Shown: positions 3,210 to 60,082 of the stretch, in pieces
How the letters are laid out: each line of letters starts with the position of its first letter
How positions within the stretch are numbered: the stretch's first letter is position 1
Assembly (NCBI GenBank): GCA_040766725.1
Contig: JAXGPZ010000001.1
Coordinates: 2,721,529-2,785,528, forward strand
Direction of reading: 5' to 3'
DNA from: Anaerolineae bacterium
GTDB taxonomy: Bacteria; Chloroflexota; Anaerolineae; UBA1429
Length of the DNA stretch: 64,000 nt
Program-made: the position numbers and the translations under genes
The notes under the pieces: generated by a model
What the model saw: only the letters and a program-made list of their open reading frames with translations
Database searches by the model: none
What the model was told of the DNA's origin: nothing

Positions 3210-3278
3210 ATGAACCGCAGTTCGCACATGGCCCGGCAGCATGGCCTCACGTCTCTGGACCCCGAGGCCCCTGGCTAA
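3210..3278 (+). CDS. 22-codon small ORF (MNRSSHMARQHGLTSLDPEAPG) immediately upstream of the ABC exporter
   Basis: AAGGAG at 3196-3201, then 8 nt, then ATG at 3210. TAA stop at 3276-3278, 37 nt before the exporter GTG start. Confidence 0.35.
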   Translation: MNRSSHMARQHGLTSLDPEAPG

Positions 3279-3315
3279 CGCGTTCGCTCTTTTACACCTG
3301 CACGAGGTCGAGACC

Positions 3316-5082
3316 GTGAACACAGCAACTCGAAACAGTCTACGCGCCTATGCTGCGCTGCTGGCGCACTATGTCAAGCCTTACTGGCGCCAGGCCCTGG
3401 CGCTGACCGTCATCCTGCTGGGCAGCATCGGCCTGTCGCTGGTCAGCCCGCAGGTGGTGCGACGCTTCATTGACCTGGCCCAGTCGCAGGCCGACCTGAG
3501 CCTGCTCATCTATGCCGCCCTCACCTACCTGGGCATCGGTTTGGCGGTGCGCGGCATGGACGTGTCTGTTGCCTACCTGGGCACCAACCTGGGCTATGCC
3601 ACCACCAACCGCCTGCGCGAGGACCTGGCGCGACACCTGCTGGGGCTCGACATGGAGTTCCACAACAGCCACACCTCGGGCGAGCTGATCGAGCGCATCG
3701 ACGGCGATGTGACGTCGTTGACGAACTTTTTCAGTCAGTTCGCCGTGCGGCTGGTGGGCGCCTTTTTGCTGATCCTGGGTGTGGTGCTGGTGATGTTCGC
3801 TACCGACTGGCGCGTGGGCCTGGTCATGGGCCTGTTCGCCTTTGGCTCGCTGGGGCTGATGGTCTACCTCAGCCGCTATGCAGTGCACGAGTCTGAAGAG
3901 GAGCGCCAGGCCAACGCCGAGCTGTTCGGCTTTGTCGAGGAGCGTCTCGCGGGGCTGGACGAGATCCGCGCCAACGGCGCCGGCCCCTACACCATGCGGC
4001 GGCTCTATGAGATCGGCCGCTCCTGGTACGAGCGCACCACGCGCGCCTGGAAGCGCCGTGGCTATCTGTGGGTGTTCATGATGGGCTTTTGGGGCATGGC
4101 CGGCGTCCTCTCGCTGAGTCTGGGCATCCTGTTTTACCTGCGAGGCCAGTTCAGCATTGGCACGGTGTTCATGCTCAACCAGTACAGCATGATGCTGGGC
4201 GATCCGATCGAGCGCATCTCGCACCAGATCCAGGATCTGCAGAAGGCTCTGGCCGCCATCGAAAGGGTGCGCGACCTGTTCGCTCTGCAGCCCAGCATCT
4301 CCAACGGGCACGGCGAGCTGCTGCCCGCCGGCGCGTTGCCGGTGCAGTTCGAGGACGTGGTCTTTCACTATGACGACGGCGACCCCAACGAGCCAGTGCT
4401 GCAGCACATCTCGTTCGAGCTCGAGCCCGGCACCACGCTGGGGCTGCTGGGTCGCACCGGCAGCGGCAAGACGACGCTGACGCGGCTGCTGTTTCGCCTT
4501 TGGGACCCCAAGTCGGGCGCCGTGCGTCTGGCCGGACAGGCGCTGCCCCGCGTCAACCTGGAGAACCTGCGCCAGCGCGTGGGCATGGTGACGCAAGAGG
4601 TGCAGCTCTTTGAGGCCAGCGTGCGCGACAACCTGACCTTTTTCGACGAGACGATCCCCGACGAGCGGGTGATCGCCGTGATCCGCGAGCTGGGCATGGG
4701 CGCCTGGTTCGACAGCCTCGAGAAGGGGCTCGACACCATGCTCCCGCCGGGCGGCGGTGGCCTGTCGGCCGGCGAACAGCAACTGCTGGCCTTTGGGCGG
4801 GTGTTCCTGCAAGACCCGGGCCTGGTGGTGCTCGACGAGCCCTCTTCGCGGCTCGACCCGGCCACCGAGCAGCGCCTGGAGCACGCCATGGATCGCCTGT
4901 TGCGGGGCCGTACGGGCATCATCATCGCCCATCGGCTGGCCACGGTGCAGCGTGTCGACGAGATCATGATCATGGATCAGGGCGCCATCCAAGAGCACGG
5001 GCGTCGCGCCGCCCTGGTGGCCGACCACAGCTCACGTTTCCATCAACTGTTGACCACCGGCCTCGAAGAGGCCTTTGCATAG
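3316..5082 (+). CDS. ABC transporter permease/ATP-binding protein (type I exporter half-transporter, MsbA/BmrC-like), first of a pair
   Basis: N-terminal six-TM region plus Walker A GRTGSGKTT, signature LSAGEQQ and Walker B VVLDEPSS. The GTG at 3316 follows GAGG. Confidence 0.85.
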   Translation: MNTATRNSLRAYAALLAHYVKPYWRQALALTVILLGSIGLSLVSPQVVRRFIDLAQSQADLSLLIYAALTYLGIGLAVRGMDVSVAYLGTNLGYATTNRLREDLARHLLGLDMEFHNSHTSGELIERIDGDVTSLTNFFSQFAVRLVGAFLLILGVVLVMFATDWRVGLVMGLFAFGSLGLMVYLSRYAVHESEEERQANAELFGFVEERLAGLDEIRANGAGPYTMRRLYEIGRSWYERTTRAWKRRGYLWVFMMGFWGMAGVLSLSLGILFYLRGQFSIGTVFMLNQYSMMLGDPIERISHQIQDLQKALAAIERVRDLFALQPSISNGHGELLPAGALPVQFEDVVFHYDDGDPNEPVLQHISFELEPGTTLGLLGRTGSGKTTLTRLLFRLWDPKSGAVRLAGQALPRVNLENLRQRVGMVTQEVQLFEASVRDNLTFFDETIPDERVIAVIRELGMGAWFDSLEKGLDTMLPPGGGGLSAGEQQLLAFGRVFLQDPGLVVLDEPSSRLDPATEQRLEHAMDRLLRGRTGIIIAHRLATVQRVDEIMIMDQGAIQEHGRRAALVADHSSRFHQLLTTGLEEAFA

Positions 5083-40017: not shown

Positions 40018-41445
40018 TCAACGCTGAGACGCCGCCCCCACGCGGCGGGCTTGCATGGGGCGGCCGATCCGCTCGGGCGTGGCTGACGAAGGCCGGCCCG
40101 CGAGCCGATTCTTGACCTCGATGATCTGCTGCCGAATGGTGTCATCCTCGTCATAGAGGGCGGCCAGTTTGTCGCAGGCATAGAGCGCCGTGGTGTGATC
40201 GCGCCCGCCGAACGACTGCCCGATCTGCGGATAGGAAAGGCCCAGCAGATCGCGCACCAGGTACATGGCCACCTGCCGGCAGAGGGCGATGTTCTGGCTG
40301 CGCCTGCGGCCCAAGAGCTGCTCGCGTGTCACCCCGAAATACTCGCACGCCACTCGTTGCACGTCATCGACGGTCACGCGCGGAGCAGGCATCGCCGTTT
40401 CGCCCAGGGCGCGTTCGACGGTGGCGAGCGTGAGTGGCTCGCCCAGCATGCTCGCGTAGGCCGTCACCCGGGTGAGGGCGCCCTCGAGCTCGCGGATGTT
40501 GGACTCGATCTGGCTGGCAATGGCCTCGAACACTTCGTTGGGCACGAACAAGCCCTGGGTCTCGGCCTTGGTGGCCAGGATGGCCATGCGCGTCTCGAAA
40601 TCGGGCGCCTTGACGTCGGCGATCAGCCCCCACTCAAAGCGCGAGCGCAGCCGCTCTTCGAGGCTGATGAACGCCTTGGGCGGTCGATCGCTCGACAGCA
40701 CGATCTGACGGTTCTCTTGATAGAGATCGTTAAAGGTGTGAAAGAACTCTTCTTGAGTGGCGTCCTTGCTGATCAGGAACTGGACGTCATCGAGCAGCAA
40801 CAGCTCGATGGTGCGGTACTTGGCACGGAACTCGTCGGTGGTCCGCAGGCGGATGGCGTTGATAAGGTCGTTGGTAAAAGTCTCGGTCGAGACATAGAGC
40901 GTGCGCAGACCGCGCGAAACCGCGCGGTTGCCGATGGCGTGCAGCAGGTGGGTCTTGCCCAGCCCGGCGCCGCCGTAAATGAACAGCGGGTTATAGGCCT
41001 GGCCGGGCTTTTCGGCCACAGCGAGGCTGCCGGCGTGCGCCAACCGGTTCGACTGTCCGACGACAAAGTCGTCAAAGGTGTAGCGCGGGTTGAGGTGGCT
41101 ATCTTTGGGATCGGTGCCGCCCAGGGCCGGGTTCTCGATGAGCTCCTGTTGCCCCGCCCAGATGGGCCCCGAGAGCGGCTCGGCCTCGTCGACGGGGCCA
41201 TTGCGCTGCACCACAAAGCGGAGCGTGACGGTGCGTCGGGCCACAGCCGAGGCGGTGCGCTGGATGTCGCCATACATGCGGCCCTCGAGGTAGCTCTGGG
41301 CGAACGCGTTGTGCACCCCCACCACCAGCACGCCGTCCTCGTACGATAGCGCGCGCGTGTCGCGCACCCAGGTATCGAACGTAGGACGTTCGAGCTGTAG
41401 TTGCAGTTGGCCCAGCGTCGCCTGCCAGACCTGGTATGCATCCAT
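40018..41445 (-). CDS. dnaA: chromosomal replication initiator protein DnaA
   Basis: Walker A GGAGLGKTHLL, Walker B LLLLDDVQF, sensor/arginine finger and C-terminal HTH (GGRDHTTALYA). Confidence 0.95.
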   Translation of the reverse strand: MDAYQVWQATLGQLQLQLERPTFDTWVRDTRALSYEDGVLVVGVHNAFAQSYLEGRMYGDIQRTASAVARRTVTLRFVVQRNGPVDEAEPLSGPIWAGQQELIENPALGGTDPKDSHLNPRYTFDDFVVGQSNRLAHAGSLAVAEKPGQAYNPLFIYGGAGLGKTHLLHAIGNRAVSRGLRTLYVSTETFTNDLINAIRLRTTDEFRAKYRTIELLLLDDVQFLISKDATQEEFFHTFNDLYQENRQIVLSSDRPPKAFISLEERLRSRFEWGLIADVKAPDFETRMAILATKAETQGLFVPNEVFEAIASQIESNIRELEGALTRVTAYASMLGEPLTLATVERALGETAMPAPRVTVDDVQRVACEYFGVTREQLLGRRRSQNIALCRQVAMYLVRDLLGLSYPQIGQSFGGRDHTTALYACDKLAALYDEDDTIRQQIIEVKNRLAGRPSSATPERIGRPMQARRVGAASQR

Positions 41446-56128: not shown

Positions 56129-56689
56129 CTAGGCGCGAATGCCCGGCTTGAGGGTGGCCACAAAGGGCAGATTACGATAGTACTCGTCGGCGTCGAGACC
56201 ATAGCCCACCACGAACTGGTCGGGCAAGGTGAGGCCCACATAGTCGATAGGCACCTCGAGCAGCCGCATGTAGGGTCGCTCAAAGAGCGTGCAGACCTTG
56301 AGACTGGCCGGCCGCCGCGTGCGCAGCGTGCGCAAGAGATAGTCGCAGGTCAGGCCGGTGTCGATGACATCCTCGACAAAGAGCACGTGCCGGTCGGTGA
56401 TGAGCAGGTCCAGGTCCTTGGTGATGCGCACGGTGCCGCTGTGTTCGCTGGCGGCATAGTGCGAGATGGCCATGAAATCGACCGCCACCGGCACGGTGAT
56501 ATGGCGCAGCAGATCGGCCATAAAGATCACCACACCGGTGAGCGAGCCCACCAGCAGGGGGTTGAGGCCGACATAGTCGGCGGAGATGGCCGCGCCCAGG
56601 CGGGCCACCGTCTGCTGGATCGTCTCGGCATCAAAGACGACCTGGCCGATGTCGTCGAACAGCGAGCTAGACGGCGTGCTCATGGTCAT
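56129..56689 (-). CDS. hpt: hypoxanthine phosphoribosyltransferase
   Basis: PRPP-binding VLFVEDVIDTGLT motif. About 180 aa. Confidence 0.9.
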   Translation of the reverse strand: MTMSTPSSSLFDDIGQVVFDAETIQQTVARLGAAISADYVGLNPLLVGSLTGVVIFMADLLRHITVPVAVDFMAISHYAASEHSGTVRITKDLDLLITDRHVLFVEDVIDTGLTCDYLLRTLRTRRPASLKVCTLFERPYMRLLEVPIDYVGLTLPDQFVVGYGLDADEYYRNLPFVATLKPGIRA

Positions 56690-57095
56690 TGGTCAGTGCA
56701 TCCTGCCCCACCAGTTGCGAGCGGCGGCTGGCCAGGCCGTACTTGGATAGCAGGCGCTCGAAATCGCGCCGGTTCCACAGCCTGATGCGCACTTCGGGAT
56801 AGAGTGACTGCAACCGCTGGATCTTGCGGCGCTTGGTCCGCGTGAGGCTTTGCCGCATGGTGGTGAGCTCGATATAGCAGTCTTGAGCGACCAGATAAAA
56901 ATCGGGCGTAAAGGCCTCGCTGACGGCGCCTGCGCCGTCCCAGTCGATGGGGAAGACCATCGGTTCATAGCGCCATTCGATGCCGTAAAAGTCGAGCAGT
57001 CGAGCGAACTCGGCCTCACTGGGGTGAGAGAAGGCGATCTCCTCACGGGCCACGAACGGGTTGGCAATCGGTCGTAGACGTTGGGCAGTCGTCAA
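56667..57095 (-). CDS. conserved hypothetical protein, first gene of the hpt operon
   Basis: 142 aa. TTG start with GGGGAG 10 nt upstream. Driven by promoter P1. Confidence 0.5.
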   Translation of the reverse strand: MTTAQRLRPIANPFVAREEIAFSHPSEAEFARLLDFYGIEWRYEPMVFPIDWDGAGAVSEAFTPDFYLVAQDCYIELTTMRQSLTRTKRRKIQRLQSLYPEVRIRLWNRRDFERLLSKYGLASRRSQLVGQDALTNDHEHAV

Positions 57096-57136
57096 CAGGC
57101 TATTACTCCCCGGTTGTCGTCGGAAGACTTGGCACC

Positions 57137-57164
57137 ATTATAGACTCCGCAGCCGCTGTGTCAA
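57137..57164 (-). promoter_or_regulatory. P1: consensus sigma70-like promoter on the minus strand (TTGACA-N16-TATAAT) for the hypothetical-hpt operon
   Basis: Reverse complement of 57131-57170 reads ttgacgTTGACAcagcggctgcggagtcTATAATgg. Confidence 0.6.
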
Positions 57165-57170
57165 CGTCAA

Positions 57171-57206
57171 AGAACAGCAAAAAGGGCACGCTCATCGAGC
57201 ATGCCC
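57171..57206 (-). terminator. rho-independent terminator on the minus strand (GGGCATGCTCgatGAGCGTGCCC + TTTTTGCTGTTCTTT)
   Basis: Perfect-stem hairpin followed by a U-rich tract. It ends 7 nt before the P1 -35. Confidence 0.65.
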
Positions 57207-57470
57207 GCTGTACACAATAAGCAAAGCCTCAAGTGACCTGCCAACTCTCGGTGCGCATCGTTGTTATGGAGTGTCTTCTCCAGAGTCTCGTCAGCTCGCT
57301 TTCGCCTGTCTCCAAGCTACTCACTCGGCGGCTCTCAATCGACCGCTCTCGCCGCCTCTTGCTACCGCTGTCGGTTACGCCGACTGATCCTCACGTTTCA
57401 GGCGACTCACCGCTCGCTGACGACGCTTTCTGCGTCTCCCGAAGAGTCTCATCAACCCCTCGAGGCTTTG
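57171..57470 (-). ncRNA. candidate sRNA A (about 300 nt, purine-rich), from P2 to the intrinsic terminator
   Basis: Bounded by a consensus promoter and a terminator. No conserved ORF. Homologous to unit B. Conserved hairpin GGAGaagacaCUCC. Confidence 0.45.
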
Positions 57471-57477
57471 CACCTGT

Positions 57478-57506
57478 ATAGTAGCACAGAGGTGCAAGGG
57501 TGTCAA
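57478..57506 (-). promoter_or_regulatory. P2: consensus sigma70-like promoter on the minus strand (TTGACA-N17-TGcTACTAT)
   Basis: Reverse complement of 57471-57510 reads acccTTGACAcccttgcacctctgtgcTACTATacagg. Confidence 0.6.
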
Positions 57507-57846
57507 GGGTTTTTGGGCGCTTCTGGGGCCAACACGGCAAATCGGCCACCCAGCGTGTGGACGGCCGATTCCGAGACAGGTAACAGGGCCACAAGTGACC
57601 TGTTCTTCCTTCCCTCCAACCTGGCGTCGTTGTGGTGGAGTGTCTCCTCCGCAGACGACCTCTTGGATCGCTTTCGACCAGCCTTGACCGATCTACTTGC
57701 TAGGCGCCGTTCCCGTTGAGCTTGCGCTCTCTGTTCCCTTTGCCGTGGGCTCCTCGGGCTTGCTTTCGCGACCTCTGGCTCCCCACTCCCCGGCCATCTA
57801 TCCACCAGATGTCTGGGTCGGATCACATCAATCTCTCGTGACCCTG
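57507..57846 (-). ncRNA. candidate sRNA B (diverged paralog of A); weak hairpin-U terminator near 57530-57570
   Basis: Shares conserved blocks with unit A (caggtcacttg; ggag-gagaca-ctcc; cgaaagcga). Driven by P3. Confidence 0.35.
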
Positions 57847-57853
57847 TGCCAGT

Positions 57854-57882
57854 ATAGTAGCAGATCGGGTTGCCGATGTCAA
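57854..57882 (-). promoter_or_regulatory. P3: consensus sigma70-like promoter on the minus strand (TTGACA-N17-TGcTACTAT)
   Basis: Reverse complement of 57851-57890 reads gggTTGACAtcggcaacccgatctgcTACTATact. Confidence 0.6.
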
Positions 57883-57909
57883 CCCTTCTGACGGGCCTCT
57901 GCGGCGAAA

Positions 57910-58740
57910 TCAGCCAAATTGCCTACGCGCTGAGGCGGCCAGGCGTTCCAGTTCCACGAGCCAGTGGTCGCCCAGCGCCGCCCAGGGCCAACGCGTCGCT
58001 AGCCGCGCCTCGCAGGGCTGCAAACTTGCCACCAGCCAGGGATGGCGCTGCCAGACCCCAGCCAGATAGGGGGGCGGCAGCAGCAGCGGCAGCGCACGGC
58101 TGCTCTGCACGCGGAACCAGGGCCGTGCGGCGCGCCGTAGTGCGGCCAGACTGTGGTAGTGAGTGCACATTTGCTGCACCACCGCCCTAGAGACAGACGC
58201 CCGGGCTGTGCTCCACCTTCTGAACGCCTGGCGCACCTGGCCATGCGCCAGAAGCCAGCACACCTCGAGCGGGTAGCAGCGGTTCATCACCGAGAGCACC
58301 ACCCGCCCGCCAGGCCGCACCAGGCCGGCCAACGTCTGGACGAATGGCTCCAGGTCGGCCAGGGCGTTGAGGGGCCCAAAAGAGGAATAGGCGCCATCAA
58401 AGAGCGAGCCGGCCGACAGACGGCTCAGCTCCGCTGCGCTCAGCAACAGGGTCTGCACCTGTGACGCCACGCCGGCTCCAGCGGCCCTGGCCTCAGTCAG
58501 CGCGAGCATGGCCGGCGAGACGTCGGTGGCAAGCACGCAGCAGCCCAGCCGCGCCAGCGCTACCGCCTCCTCGCCGGTGCCGCAGCCGATCTCGAGCAAG
58601 CGCTGCCCGGGCCCAAAGGCGCGCTTGAGGGTGGCCAGGCTGACCGCACGCATATAGACCATCGCCGGGTTGGCCCGTGCCTCGGCGTCGTAAGTGGCGG
58701 CGGCGCGCTCGAAGGCCGGCGCCCCATTATCGCCGGACAT
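57910..58740 (-). CDS. class I SAM-dependent methyltransferase (last gene of the envelope glycan operon)
   Basis: LEIGCGTGE motif. Confidence 0.7.
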   Translation of the reverse strand: MSGDNGAPAFERAAATYDAEARANPAMVYMRAVSLATLKRAFGPGQRLLEIGCGTGEEAVALARLGCCVLATDVSPAMLALTEARAAGAGVASQVQTLLLSAAELSRLSAGSLFDGAYSSFGPLNALADLEPFVQTLAGLVRPGGRVVLSVMNRCYPLEVCWLLAHGQVRQAFRRWSTARASVSRAVVQQMCTHYHSLAALRRAARPWFRVQSSRALPLLLPPPYLAGVWQRHPWLVASLQPCEARLATRWPWAALGDHWLVELERLAASARRQFG

Positions 58741-60082
58741 CGTCGCACCCCTGGGACCCATGCCGCGACCAGGCCCCCAGCATGGCCCCGAGGATCAGCG
58801 CCGGCCACCAGGCGACCGGTAGATAGAGATAGACATCGACCAGCGTCGCCAGAAAACCCGCCAGCAGCGCCACGCAGAGTCCGACCAGCTCCCAATCATG
58901 CCCCGTGGCGCCTCGGTGCAGACCCACGACGGCCGGGCCCACCAGCAGCGCCACCCAGAGCAGCGCGCCGCCGACGCCGAGCTCGGCCGCCGTGAGCAGC
59001 GGAATGCTATGCACCGTGCGAAAGCCGGGGAACTTGGGGCCCATCTGGCTACCCACGGTCGCCCACAGCGCCCTGACATAGTAACCAGACCCTACCCCCA
59101 GCCATGGCCGAGCGCGGATCAGCGTCCACGCCAGCCGATAGTCCTCGAGGCGCTCGCGCAGCGAGTTCTGCTCGAGAAGATTGCCCAGCCCGCACAGCCG
59201 CAGAGACAGCGCGGCCCCTAACAGCAGTATGCACGCTCCGAGCCCGCCCAACAGCCAGCGCCGCATCGCGGGCTGGAGTTCGCCCCAGTAAGCGCGCCGC
59301 AGCACCAGCCCGCAGCCCGCCATGCTCAGGAGCAGCGCCAACAGCGCCGAGCGCGAGAAGGACAGCAGCAGCCCGGCCATGCCCGGCGCCATGCTGCCCA
59401 GCAGCAGAGCACGTTCGACGCGGTCGCGCGTGGCTTGTGCCCTCCCCGCCACCACCAGAAGGCCCATCGTCATCTGTCCGCCGAGGACGTTGGGGTGTGG
59501 CGCCATCCCCTGAGCGCGGAGCCAGCGTCGGCCACCCACGACCAGAACATAAGCGCCCAGTTCGCTAGGCGCCTTGGCGGCCTCGCCCAACGCTTCGAGG
59601 CCCACCGGCCCCTGCAAGGCGAACTGCCCCACCGCCACCAGCCCCTGGAGCACCAGCACGGCCGCCATAGCAGCGGCCAGATAGCGGATCGGCAACTCGG
59701 TGTGCGCAAAGAGGCCAATGGCCCAGAAAAAGCCGATCGACGTCACTGTCACAAAAGCGGCGCGCGCAACGTGGACGGGCCACACGCGCACCAACGCCAG
59801 AGTTCCCAGGCCCAACGCCGGGCCTACCGCCCACCAGGCCGGACGCGCCCAGTGGCGCCAGCGTTGCCCTGCCAGCGTGCCCCACAACCACGTCACGGCC
59901 ACCGCCAGGGGTACAAGCATCAGTGCCCCCGGCGCATAGTCATGCCCCAGCAGCCGCACCGTGCCCAGAGGCCAGAGCGCAAAGGCGCCGTGCTGCCACG
60001 AAGGCGTCAGGCAAGCCAACACCAGCGCGGCGCAGAAGAGCGCCCGCGAAGCATAGATGACGACCCGCGCACCGGCCTTCAC
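58727..60082 (-). CDS. O-antigen ligase/polymerase-like (Wzy_C/WaaL family) membrane protein
   Basis: Polytopic membrane protein with a large periplasmic loop. SRSALLALLLS and PWLGVGSGYY blocks. Confidence 0.7.
   Translation of the reverse strand: MKAGARVVIYASRALFCAALVLACLTPSWQHGAFALWPLGTVRLLGHDYAPGALMLVPLAVAVTWLWGTLAGQRWRHWARPAWWAVGPALGLGTLALVRVWPVHVARAAFVTVTSIGFFWAIGLFAHTELPIRYLAAAMAAVLVLQGLVAVGQFALQGPVGLEALGEAAKAPSELGAYVLVVGGRRWLRAQGMAPHPNVLGGQMTMGLLVVAGRAQATRDRVERALLLGSMAPGMAGLLLSFSRSALLALLLSMAGCGLVLRRAYWGELQPAMRRWLLGGLGACILLLGAALSLRLCGLGNLLEQNSLRERLEDYRLAWTLIRARPWLGVGSGYYVRALWATVGSQMGPKFPGFRTVHSIPLLTAAELGVGGALLWVALLVGPAVVGLHRGATGHDWELVGLCVALLAGFLATLVDVYLYLPVAWWPALILGAMLGAWSRHGSQGCDDVRR

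Follow-up and report, generated by a model that had tools for sequence, protein, structure and literature searches.

At the locus described here, within a 64,000-nucleotide (nt) stretch of the genome of an Anaerolineae bacterium (contig JAXGPZ010000001.1; the whole stretch is called the window below), two homologous transcription units, B and then A, follow one another on the minus strand, each with a sigma-70 promoter and a terminator hairpin of its own, and a two-gene operon headed by a third promoter (promoter P1) lies downstream (Table 1). Judged from their sequences and those of their relatives, A and B are, with high probability, two separate, conserved, structured non-coding RNA genes of a previously undescribed class. 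The family can be defined by a closing helix (helix P1, to be kept apart from promoter P1), the 5′ block CGAGRGRUUGAUG, the 3′ block CAGGUCACUUG, an AGUA/GAA hairpin and a GGAG hairpin, together with a promoter and terminator belonging to each RNA. All of these are found in both window units and in nine more distinct sequences, with the A copy of the related locus L006 (L006A) as the exception.

The three promoters had been picked out in an earlier note on this DNA, and a promoter scan finds all of them with the exact hexamers; three sites in 5 kb compare with 0.7 ± 0.9 in shuffled sequence (minus strand), and the three are the top-ranking sites between 40 and 60 kb of the window. The base composition is also as that note had described it, lower in guanine plus cytosine (GC) and rich in pyrimidines on the plus strand: GC is 0.56-0.60 across the RNA region versus 0.69-0.73 in the flanks, and the transcribed strand is 61-63 % purine versus 50 % for the whole window. 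Units A and B align end to end in a pairwise alignment, so the homology claimed for them stands; the claimed length of 330-380 base pairs (bp) does not, because those units included the promoters, and the RNA bodies are about 257 and 269 nt plus terminator. The intrinsic terminator assigned to unit A is real, while the hairpin that unit B has for itself had been overlooked. The U tract of this second terminator is weak in the window and clear in the B orthologues, whose stems have different sequences; the position of the unit A terminator is likewise kept in orthologues, with stem sequences that differ. The terminator begins about 10-13 nt past the 3′ strand of helix P1, and the spacing from the TAT of the -10 element to CGAG is exactly 15 nt in every unit read.

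Table 1. Positions of the RNA genes, their parts and their neighbours in the window, and of matching features in related loci and contigs (L numbers).
Feature	Sequence	Position	Strand	Basis or remark
Promoter of unit B, TTGACA-N17-(TG)cTACTAT	window	57854..57882	-	promoter scan, 10/12 consensus
Promoter of unit A, A-tract CCCAAAAACCC then TTGACA-N17-(TG)cTACTAT	window	57478..57517 (hexamers 57506-57478)	-	promoter scan, 10/12
Promoter P1 of downstream operon, TTGACA-N16-TATAAT	window	57137..57164	-	12/12; neighbour, outside the RNA genes
Unit B RNA body, B-type, about 269 nt	window	57580..57848	-	full-length match of model R1
Unit A RNA body, A-type, about 256-257 nt	window	57217..57472	-	model R1, 292 bits
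Unit A intrinsic terminator, 10-bp stem and U5	window	57179..57206 (hairpin 57206-57184)	-	terminator scan
Unit B terminator hairpin, AAUCGGCC…GGCCGAUUU	window	57539..57570	-	inverted repeat I3; weak U tract
Closing helix P1, unit A, GCAAAGCCUCGAG paired with CUUGAGGCUUUGC	window	57471-57459 with 57233-57221	-	
Closing helix P1, unit B, ACAGGGUCACGAG paired with CUUGUGGCCCUGU	window	57847-57835 with 57595-57583	-	
5′ rod-base block CGAG-RGRU-UGAUG	window	A 57450..57462; B 57826-57838	-	11/11 distinct sequences identical except at two R positions
3′ rod-base block CAGGUCACUUG	window	A 57230..57240; B 57592-57602	-	invariant in 11/11 sequences
AGUA/GAA motif flanking a covarying hairpin	window	A 57297..57322; B 57669-57698	-	helix 12
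Hairpin GGAG-RAGACA-CUCC, then unpaired A-rich AUAAMAACGA	window	A 57258..57281; B 57627-57650	-	repeat family D1; helix 13
Alternative pairing of RCAGG	window	A 57230-57245 with 57221-57225; B 57592-57607 with 57583-57587		
Called antisense open reading frame	window	57261-57719	+	
Called antisense open reading frame	L004	3205-3828	-	
Called antisense open reading frame	L006	3336-3566		
Called antisense open reading frame	L023	714-1277		
Insertion in B-type RNA	L004	about 3225-3350		about 100 nt
A core	L023	1012-823	-	model positions 34-223
MISL RNA	L023	779-22	-	RF03079, 583 bits
MISL with RdRp-like open reading frame	L024	8-2403	-	
MISL with RdRp-like open reading frame	L025	123-2217		
MISL with RdRp-like open reading frame	L026			
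PDDEXK-like open reading frame, 142 amino acids	window	57095-56667	-	some homologues named "PDDEXK family nuclease" by NCBI
hpt	window	56689-56129	-	operon 56129..57095, context only
Methyltransferase gene	window	57910-58761	-	
Methyltransferase gene	L004	2213-3040		
Methyltransferase gene	L001	11695-12408	-	
dnaA	window	40018-41445	-	Bac_DnaA, DnaA_N, DnaA_C
Promoter-like site	window	41792-41764		

Relatives of the two units were found via the DNA around homologues of the open reading frame (ORF) of 142 amino acids (aa) in the downstream operon, and by a single metagenome scan that looked for both invariant blocks. They bring the set to seven distinct A-type sequences (window, L001, L002, L004, L006, L013/L015 and L016) and four distinct B-type sequences (window, L001, L004 and L006), plus partial B copies in L013/L015; the organism labels are those of "Chloroflexota bacterium" and "Anaerolineales bacterium" metagenome-assembled genomes (MAGs), from bioreactor and sediment metagenomes. 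B and A stand in tandem in four lineages (window, L004/L005, L006 and L013/L015), and in L001 unit B lies 5.5 kb from unit A on the opposite strand, which shows that the two are separate genes. Every unit read (11 distinct) has a TTGAC(A/T)-N17-TGCTAnTAT promoter and a terminator hairpin of its own sequence with U's, and most have an A-tract upstream. The metagenome scan returned just five stretches, and we take the family to be confined to a narrow clade. No RNA copy was detected by nhmmer or the covariance model in the more distant PDDEXK-hpt loci (L003, L007-L010 and L017-L022), no similarity to the RNAs was found in plasmid and phage collections, and viral contigs gave no match to a promoter-anchored pattern or to an A-core pattern. 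The A and B copies fall into distinct orthologue groups with different central domains, and the A/B duplication is old.

The fold is supported by single sequences to a differing degree and by comparison in both units. Against shuffled sequence, unit A has a fold z-score of -5.4, and unit B a less clear one of -1.7. An alignment of the seven A-type sequences made with MAFFT and folded with RNAalifold (alignment A6) has 74 pairs, 15 of them changing on both sides, and 94 % of cells paired; shuffles gave 4.6 ± 1.5 compensatory pairs (0 of 500 reaching 15) and slid partners gave 2-5. A covariance model built from the A-type sequences only (model R1) recovers all four B-type RNAs at full length, at 28-45 bits and E values of 1e-8 to 1e-13 (window unit B at 57579-57848, 38.4 bits, E 1e-11), and over 169 kb it yields no other credible match beyond the A and B RNAs. 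When A and B are aligned together on the covariance model (alignment A8), 93.9 % of cells are paired and 35 of the 74 pairs are compensatory, compared with 16.3 ± 2.4 in shuffles (0/500 reach 35) and 3-9 in slid controls. The predicted common fold of A and B is well supported by these compensatory changes. An all-against-all column scan for extra covarying helices or pseudoknots gave only the modelled helices and one possible alternative 3′ hairpin.

Each RNA, 248-364 nt long across the orthologues, is predicted to be closed by the 13-bp helix P1, whose strands are the first nucleotides after the predicted start and the last before the terminator in both units; its outer part covaries, and compensatory differences already separate A from B. 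The base of the rod that follows is formed by 5′ CGAG-RGRU-UGAUG-GNRA facing 3′ RRCAG-GUCA-CUUG, and beyond this invariant base the rod has additional helices that covary. At the end of the rod lies a junction with the GGAG-RAGACA-CUCC hairpin (in L006A a variant hairpin without the AACGA tract) and a stem leading to a multibranched central domain with three hairpins, which include the AGUA/GAA hairpin and GNRA loops. Helix 12, the hairpin within the AGUA/GAA motif, changes on both sides at four of its five pairs with 100 % of cells paired, and the flanking motif is one that we take to be loop-E/sarcin-ricin-like. Outside the AGUA/GAA hairpin, the central domain of A cannot be aligned with that of B. 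In L004/L005, the central domain of the B-type RNA is enlarged by an insertion of about 100 nt that is rich in GNRA-capped hairpins, and the L004 copy measures 364 nt versus 266-279 nt in other B copies. We considered a K-turn at the rod base and ruled it out, the 3′ strand having CA or AG where the generally known motif requires GA.

A further pairing touches the 3′ end: the five final nucleotides of the 3′ strand of helix P1 can also pair with an internal RCAGG that immediately precedes GUCACUUG. The partners covary: most A copies have GCAGG/UUUGC, the B copies ACAGG/CCUGU, and L006A has ACAGG/UCUGU. An alternative hairpin at the 3′ end, in competition with helix P1, is one possible reading; the other is that the pairing arises incidentally from a likeness to the 5′ end.

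Several claims of the earlier note concern what kind of genes these are. That neither unit holds a conserved ORF is borne out by sense ORFs of at most 36 codons in frames that are inconsistent between genomes. The AUG after GAGGGG, correctly described there as opening 25 codons in A and meeting UGA at once in B, has another length and frame in L002 and L004; it meets UAA at once in L006A, and UGA comes next in all B copies. The shared blocks that it listed, GGAG-RAGACA-CUCC (with AACGA) and CAGGTCACTTG, are both real. Independent transcription agrees with the promoter and terminator conserved with each unit and with the separation of A from B in L001, and a structured RNA with the compensatory substitutions in both alignments; the covariance search that the note proposed did find A and B copies in relatives, where the order of promoter, unit, terminator and hpt promoter is conserved (unit A before PDDEXK-hpt in 7/7 lineages). 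Its view that no known family applies also holds: Rfam 15 (4227 models) gives no match at gathering score in the whole window or in 19 related loci, and at E≤10 in four regions only noise (C/D-box-like, caused by UGAUGA) and terminator look-alikes. ARAGORN found no transfer RNA (tRNA) or transfer-messenger RNA in the window, and a literature search with RNA sequence strings returned unrelated primers only. The note's picture of a duplicated small RNA (sRNA) locus needs a refinement: the duplicated structured non-coding RNAs are large and multibranched, with conserved tertiary-type motifs, and do not look like typical base-pairing sRNAs.

On the antisense strand, the RNA genes are overlaid by publicly called hypothetical proteins of 76-207 aa. 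Stop codons are few on that strand because the RNA strand is purine-rich, and these proteins are very probably annotation artefacts. A protein-database search with the window's own antisense ORF gave no matches; the same kind of search with the spurious antisense ORF called over the L004 RNAs led to L023, a 1285-nt contig with no credible gene. On its minus strand, a 195-nt segment matches the A core of L004 with 100 % identity, without rod, promoter or terminator and with both flanks unrelated to L004, and a full-length MISL RNA, another large RNA family (RF03079, a model of 751 positions), starts 44 nt downstream of this A core. MISL has no match in the window or in the related chromosomal loci and stands beside an A core in L023 only; the 270 nt upstream of the A core also resemble structured RNA. 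The junction may be an assembly artefact among abundant RNAs or a real second context of the A core. If the sample is a metatranscriptome, the contig would hint at expression of the A RNA, and if the A core truly lies beside or within a larger transcript carrying MISL, it would point to a shuffling of domains between large RNAs of bacteria. Three short IMG/VR contigs (L024-L026) hold a MISL RNA as well, directly after an ORF with motifs like those of RNA-dependent RNA polymerase (RdRp; DYHRMDGT, SGCSATSLFQT and HLGDDGL) that has no Pfam match. An RdRp-like segment of 1664 nt is identical between L024 and L025, but from one and the same junction point it continues into different MISL copies, which face opposite ways relative to it, so at least one of these contigs is chimeric. 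We found no account of MISL in the literature beyond its use as an Rfam example.

Downstream of unit A, promoter P1 heads the PDDEXK-like ORF and hpt, which the earlier note had read as a 142-aa ORF and hpt. The 142-aa ORF belongs to no Pfam or NCBIfam family, and the PDB gives a weak match to T7 endonuclease I (E 0.04); some sources mislabel this small protein as hypoxanthine phosphoribosyltransferase. The two genes overlap by 23 nt (56667-56689), which suggests translational coupling. The PDDEXK-hpt pair is widespread in Anaerolineae, also without the RNAs, and promoter P1 is kept in relatives; L017, which has no RNAs, has TTGACA-N17-TATAAT before the same operon. Unit A lies directly upstream of PDDEXK-hpt in all seven lineages, including L015, which was found by DNA pattern alone, and shared inheritance in a narrow clade can account for this adjacency. 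Directly upstream of unit B, in three lineages and not in L006, is a class I methyltransferase gene dependent on S-adenosylmethionine, with a weak match to tRNA U5-methyltransferase (E 0.002); unit B of L001 is still just downstream of it, as in the window and L004. A dnaA gene with a promoter-like site lies about 16 kb from the RNA genes, and the window is therefore probably close to the origin of replication.

How the RNAs act can be proposed with less assurance than that they exist. The combination of an invariant rod base, a covarying remainder of the rod and a central domain free enough to accept 100 nt suggests a common recognition site with paralogue-specific modules. Tentatively, we propose that the RNAs may serve in trans as protein-binding scaffolds recognized at the rod base, a possibility that we regard as open to serious competition. 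Under such a mechanism, A and B would be abundant and stable RNAs acting in trans, the sequence-invariant rod base would be the recognition site common to both paralogues, and the divergent central domains would give each its own partner or activity. The modular logic would be that of Y RNAs, without any claim that A and B are Y RNAs, and the site upstream of PDDEXK-hpt would most simply reflect a historical insertion and not a regulatory link.

A number of observations weigh against this proposal or limit its footing. The data set is small, with 11 distinct sequences from one narrow clade, and transcript ends and abundance are predicted from sequence alone. The pair counts of A8 are inflated because that alignment was fitted to the structure of the model, which makes the MAFFT figure from A6 the more conservative one. 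The pairing at the rod base (UGAU:GUCA versus the register of RNAalifold) is beyond the reach of covariation because its nucleotides never vary, and their invariance fits a catalytic, processing or RNA-RNA contact role equally well. The A core without a rod in L023 weakens the idea of the rod base as the essential part. Finally, no RNA-binding gene consistently adjoins the RNAs, the neighbours being the methyltransferase (B, three lineages) and PDDEXK-hpt (A, all).

The main rival to a protein-binding scaffold is a role played by RNA only, in which A and B would form homo-oligomeric or A/B hetero-oligomeric assemblies, or act as ribozymes, with the invariant nucleotides making tertiary, quaternary or catalytic contacts. 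The large multibranched folds, the many GNRA tetraloops, the loop-E-like motif and the invariant internal loops would all suit it, as would the pairing of A with B in most lineages and the position of the A core beside MISL, another large ornate RNA, in L023; there are precedents for RNA-only assemblies (PMC12286853, PMC12968392), and ROOL, GOLLD, OLE and raiA have recently been reported to work as assemblies or ribozymes. We nonetheless consider it rather unlikely, given that the column scan gave no conserved pseudoknot or loop-loop complementarity, that no ribozyme family matched at E≤10, and that the hammerhead-like strings fail at the core (U for C3, stems II and III unfitting). RNAduplex of A against B says little either way, since the homologous rods cross-pair. 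Regulators that bind RNA polymerase, like 6S or Ms1 RNA, would account for two abundant-looking stand-alone RNAs closed by their 5′ and 3′ ends, and a lineage-specific replacement of 6S by two paralogues, like 6S-1/6S-2, would parallel the Bacillus cereus group, where 6S genes stand in tandem (PMC7726162); such a role has a small probability in our view, the Rfam 6S and related models having no match even at E≤10 and the covariation-supported fold being multibranched, without a large central bubble between two long helices. Similarly improbable is a redundant pair of sRNAs that base-pair in trans, like PrrF1/2 or Qrr, with AUAAMAACGA or the RAGACA loop as seed. The independent promoter-terminator units, the tandem paralogues and the conserved unpaired A-rich tract after the GGAG hairpin could be read in this way, but RNAs of 260-360 nt with about 74 conserved pairs and tertiary-type motifs go far beyond what a seed plus terminator needs, the invariant sequence is mostly in the paired rod base and not in an accessible seed, and the AACGA tract is absent from L006A.

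Two further explanations are very unlikely. The units could be cis-regulatory leaders, for example a riboswitch for purine or phosphoribosyl pyrophosphate with a terminator platform that controls read-through into PDDEXK-hpt, and unit A does lie immediately before this purine-salvage operon in all seven lineages with a terminator between RNA and operon. A leader, however, would have no promoter between itself and the ORF that it controls; the idea is weak because the conserved, perfect-consensus promoter P1 intervenes between the unit A terminator and the ORF, because L017 has a similar promoter before the same operon without any RNAs, and because unit B is followed by unit A or unrelated DNA and by no regulated ORF. 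No riboswitch family of Rfam 15 matched in the window. It is just as hard to credit that A and B are true Y RNAs, the partners of Ro60/Rsr. The Ro60/Rsr-binding motif lies in the 5′ strand of the terminal stem, as GGUCCGA and, in bacteria, GNCGAAN0-1G (PMC4201824), and A and B do have a terminal stem made by both ends, whose 5′ YCGAGRG and 3′ CACUUG are loosely like the vertebrate GGUCCGA…CUUGAC helix and the bacterial motif, as well as several paralogues with a common stem and differing upper parts. Against this, CUCGAGGG (A) and CACGAGAG (B) agree with GNCGAAN0-1G at four of its six specified positions and depart from it at two, the RNAs are two to three times the size of Y RNAs, no tRNA-like module was found by ARAGORN or Rfam, no Rfam model of Y RNA or YrlA matched, and no TROVE/Rsr protein occurs among 28 window ORFs of ≥400 aa, two more beside the locus, or the Pfam tables of the related loci.

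Alongside the scaffold proposal, and with a low probability, we would place a more speculative idea, namely that a lineage of Anaerolineales has a previously unknown RNA-based machine of its own, with exchangeable ornate domains, for which A and B supply the two RNA subunits or serve as alternative specificity modules; this machine would be a new ribonucleoprotein or else consist of RNA only, as a hetero-oligomer or ribozyme. Few bacterial RNAs exceed about 200 nt and have complex conserved folds, and the solved ones have time and again proved to be ribozymes, cores of ribonucleoproteins or, in recent cases, assemblies of RNA only. The locus adds a covariation-supported class of large RNA in a poorly studied, mostly uncultured phylum, and its shared invariant terminal module with different central domains offers a built-in comparison for what each part binds. 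Rfam is without this family, and a family model would improve the annotation of Chloroflexota MAGs, where gene callers place spurious proteins.

Among known systems, the likeness to a type I hammerhead is confined to strings: UUGAUGAG (by the 5′ strand of helix P1), CGAAA and GUC-A (by the 3′ strand) occur in hammerhead order. A hammerhead core has C3-U4-G5-A6-N7-G8-A9 and G12-A13-A14 between three helices, with cleavage after NUH. We rejected this candidate on three counts, C3 being U in 11/11 sequences, no stems II or III fitting and no model matching at E≤10, and CGAAA belonging to the covarying AGUA/GAA hairpin, and we judge the resemblance coincidental. The 6S pairs (6S-1/6S-2, and the tandem of the Bacillus cereus group) share with A and B the arrangement of two tandem, independently transcribed, end-paired and probably abundant RNAs, whereas A and B lack the rod-bubble-rod shape (a rod of about 150-200 nt whose large central bubble separates a closing from a terminal stem) and have no match to RF00013; 6S RNA itself binds the sigma-70 RNA polymerase holoenzyme and is a template for pRNA. 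With the Y RNAs (vertebrate Y1-Y5; bacterial Yrn1 and YrlA/YrlB), A and B have in common a conserved stem made by the ends, a variable upper domain, paralogues clustered in the genome and a loosely similar stem, CGAG…CUUG; they differ in length (248-364 nt versus 80-130 nt), in an unmatched Ro motif, in lacking a T/D module and in having no rsr gene nearby (large ORFs of the window and related loci).

The closest company is that of the raiA motif, OLE, ROOL/GOLLD and MISL. Like A and B, these are stand-alone genes with strong expression signals, of at least 200 nt, multibranched, supported by covariation and endowed with many GNRA loops and motifs of the E-loop type (an E-loop is frequent in raiA; PMC10861870), and their gene neighbours do not reveal a function. 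A and B match none of them in sequence or structure (Rfam 15), and their distribution, one Anaerolineales subclade, is much narrower. The family nevertheless falls in this known category of orphan ornate bacterial RNAs and, unlike its other members named here, consists of two diverged paralogues that share the rod and not the central domain.

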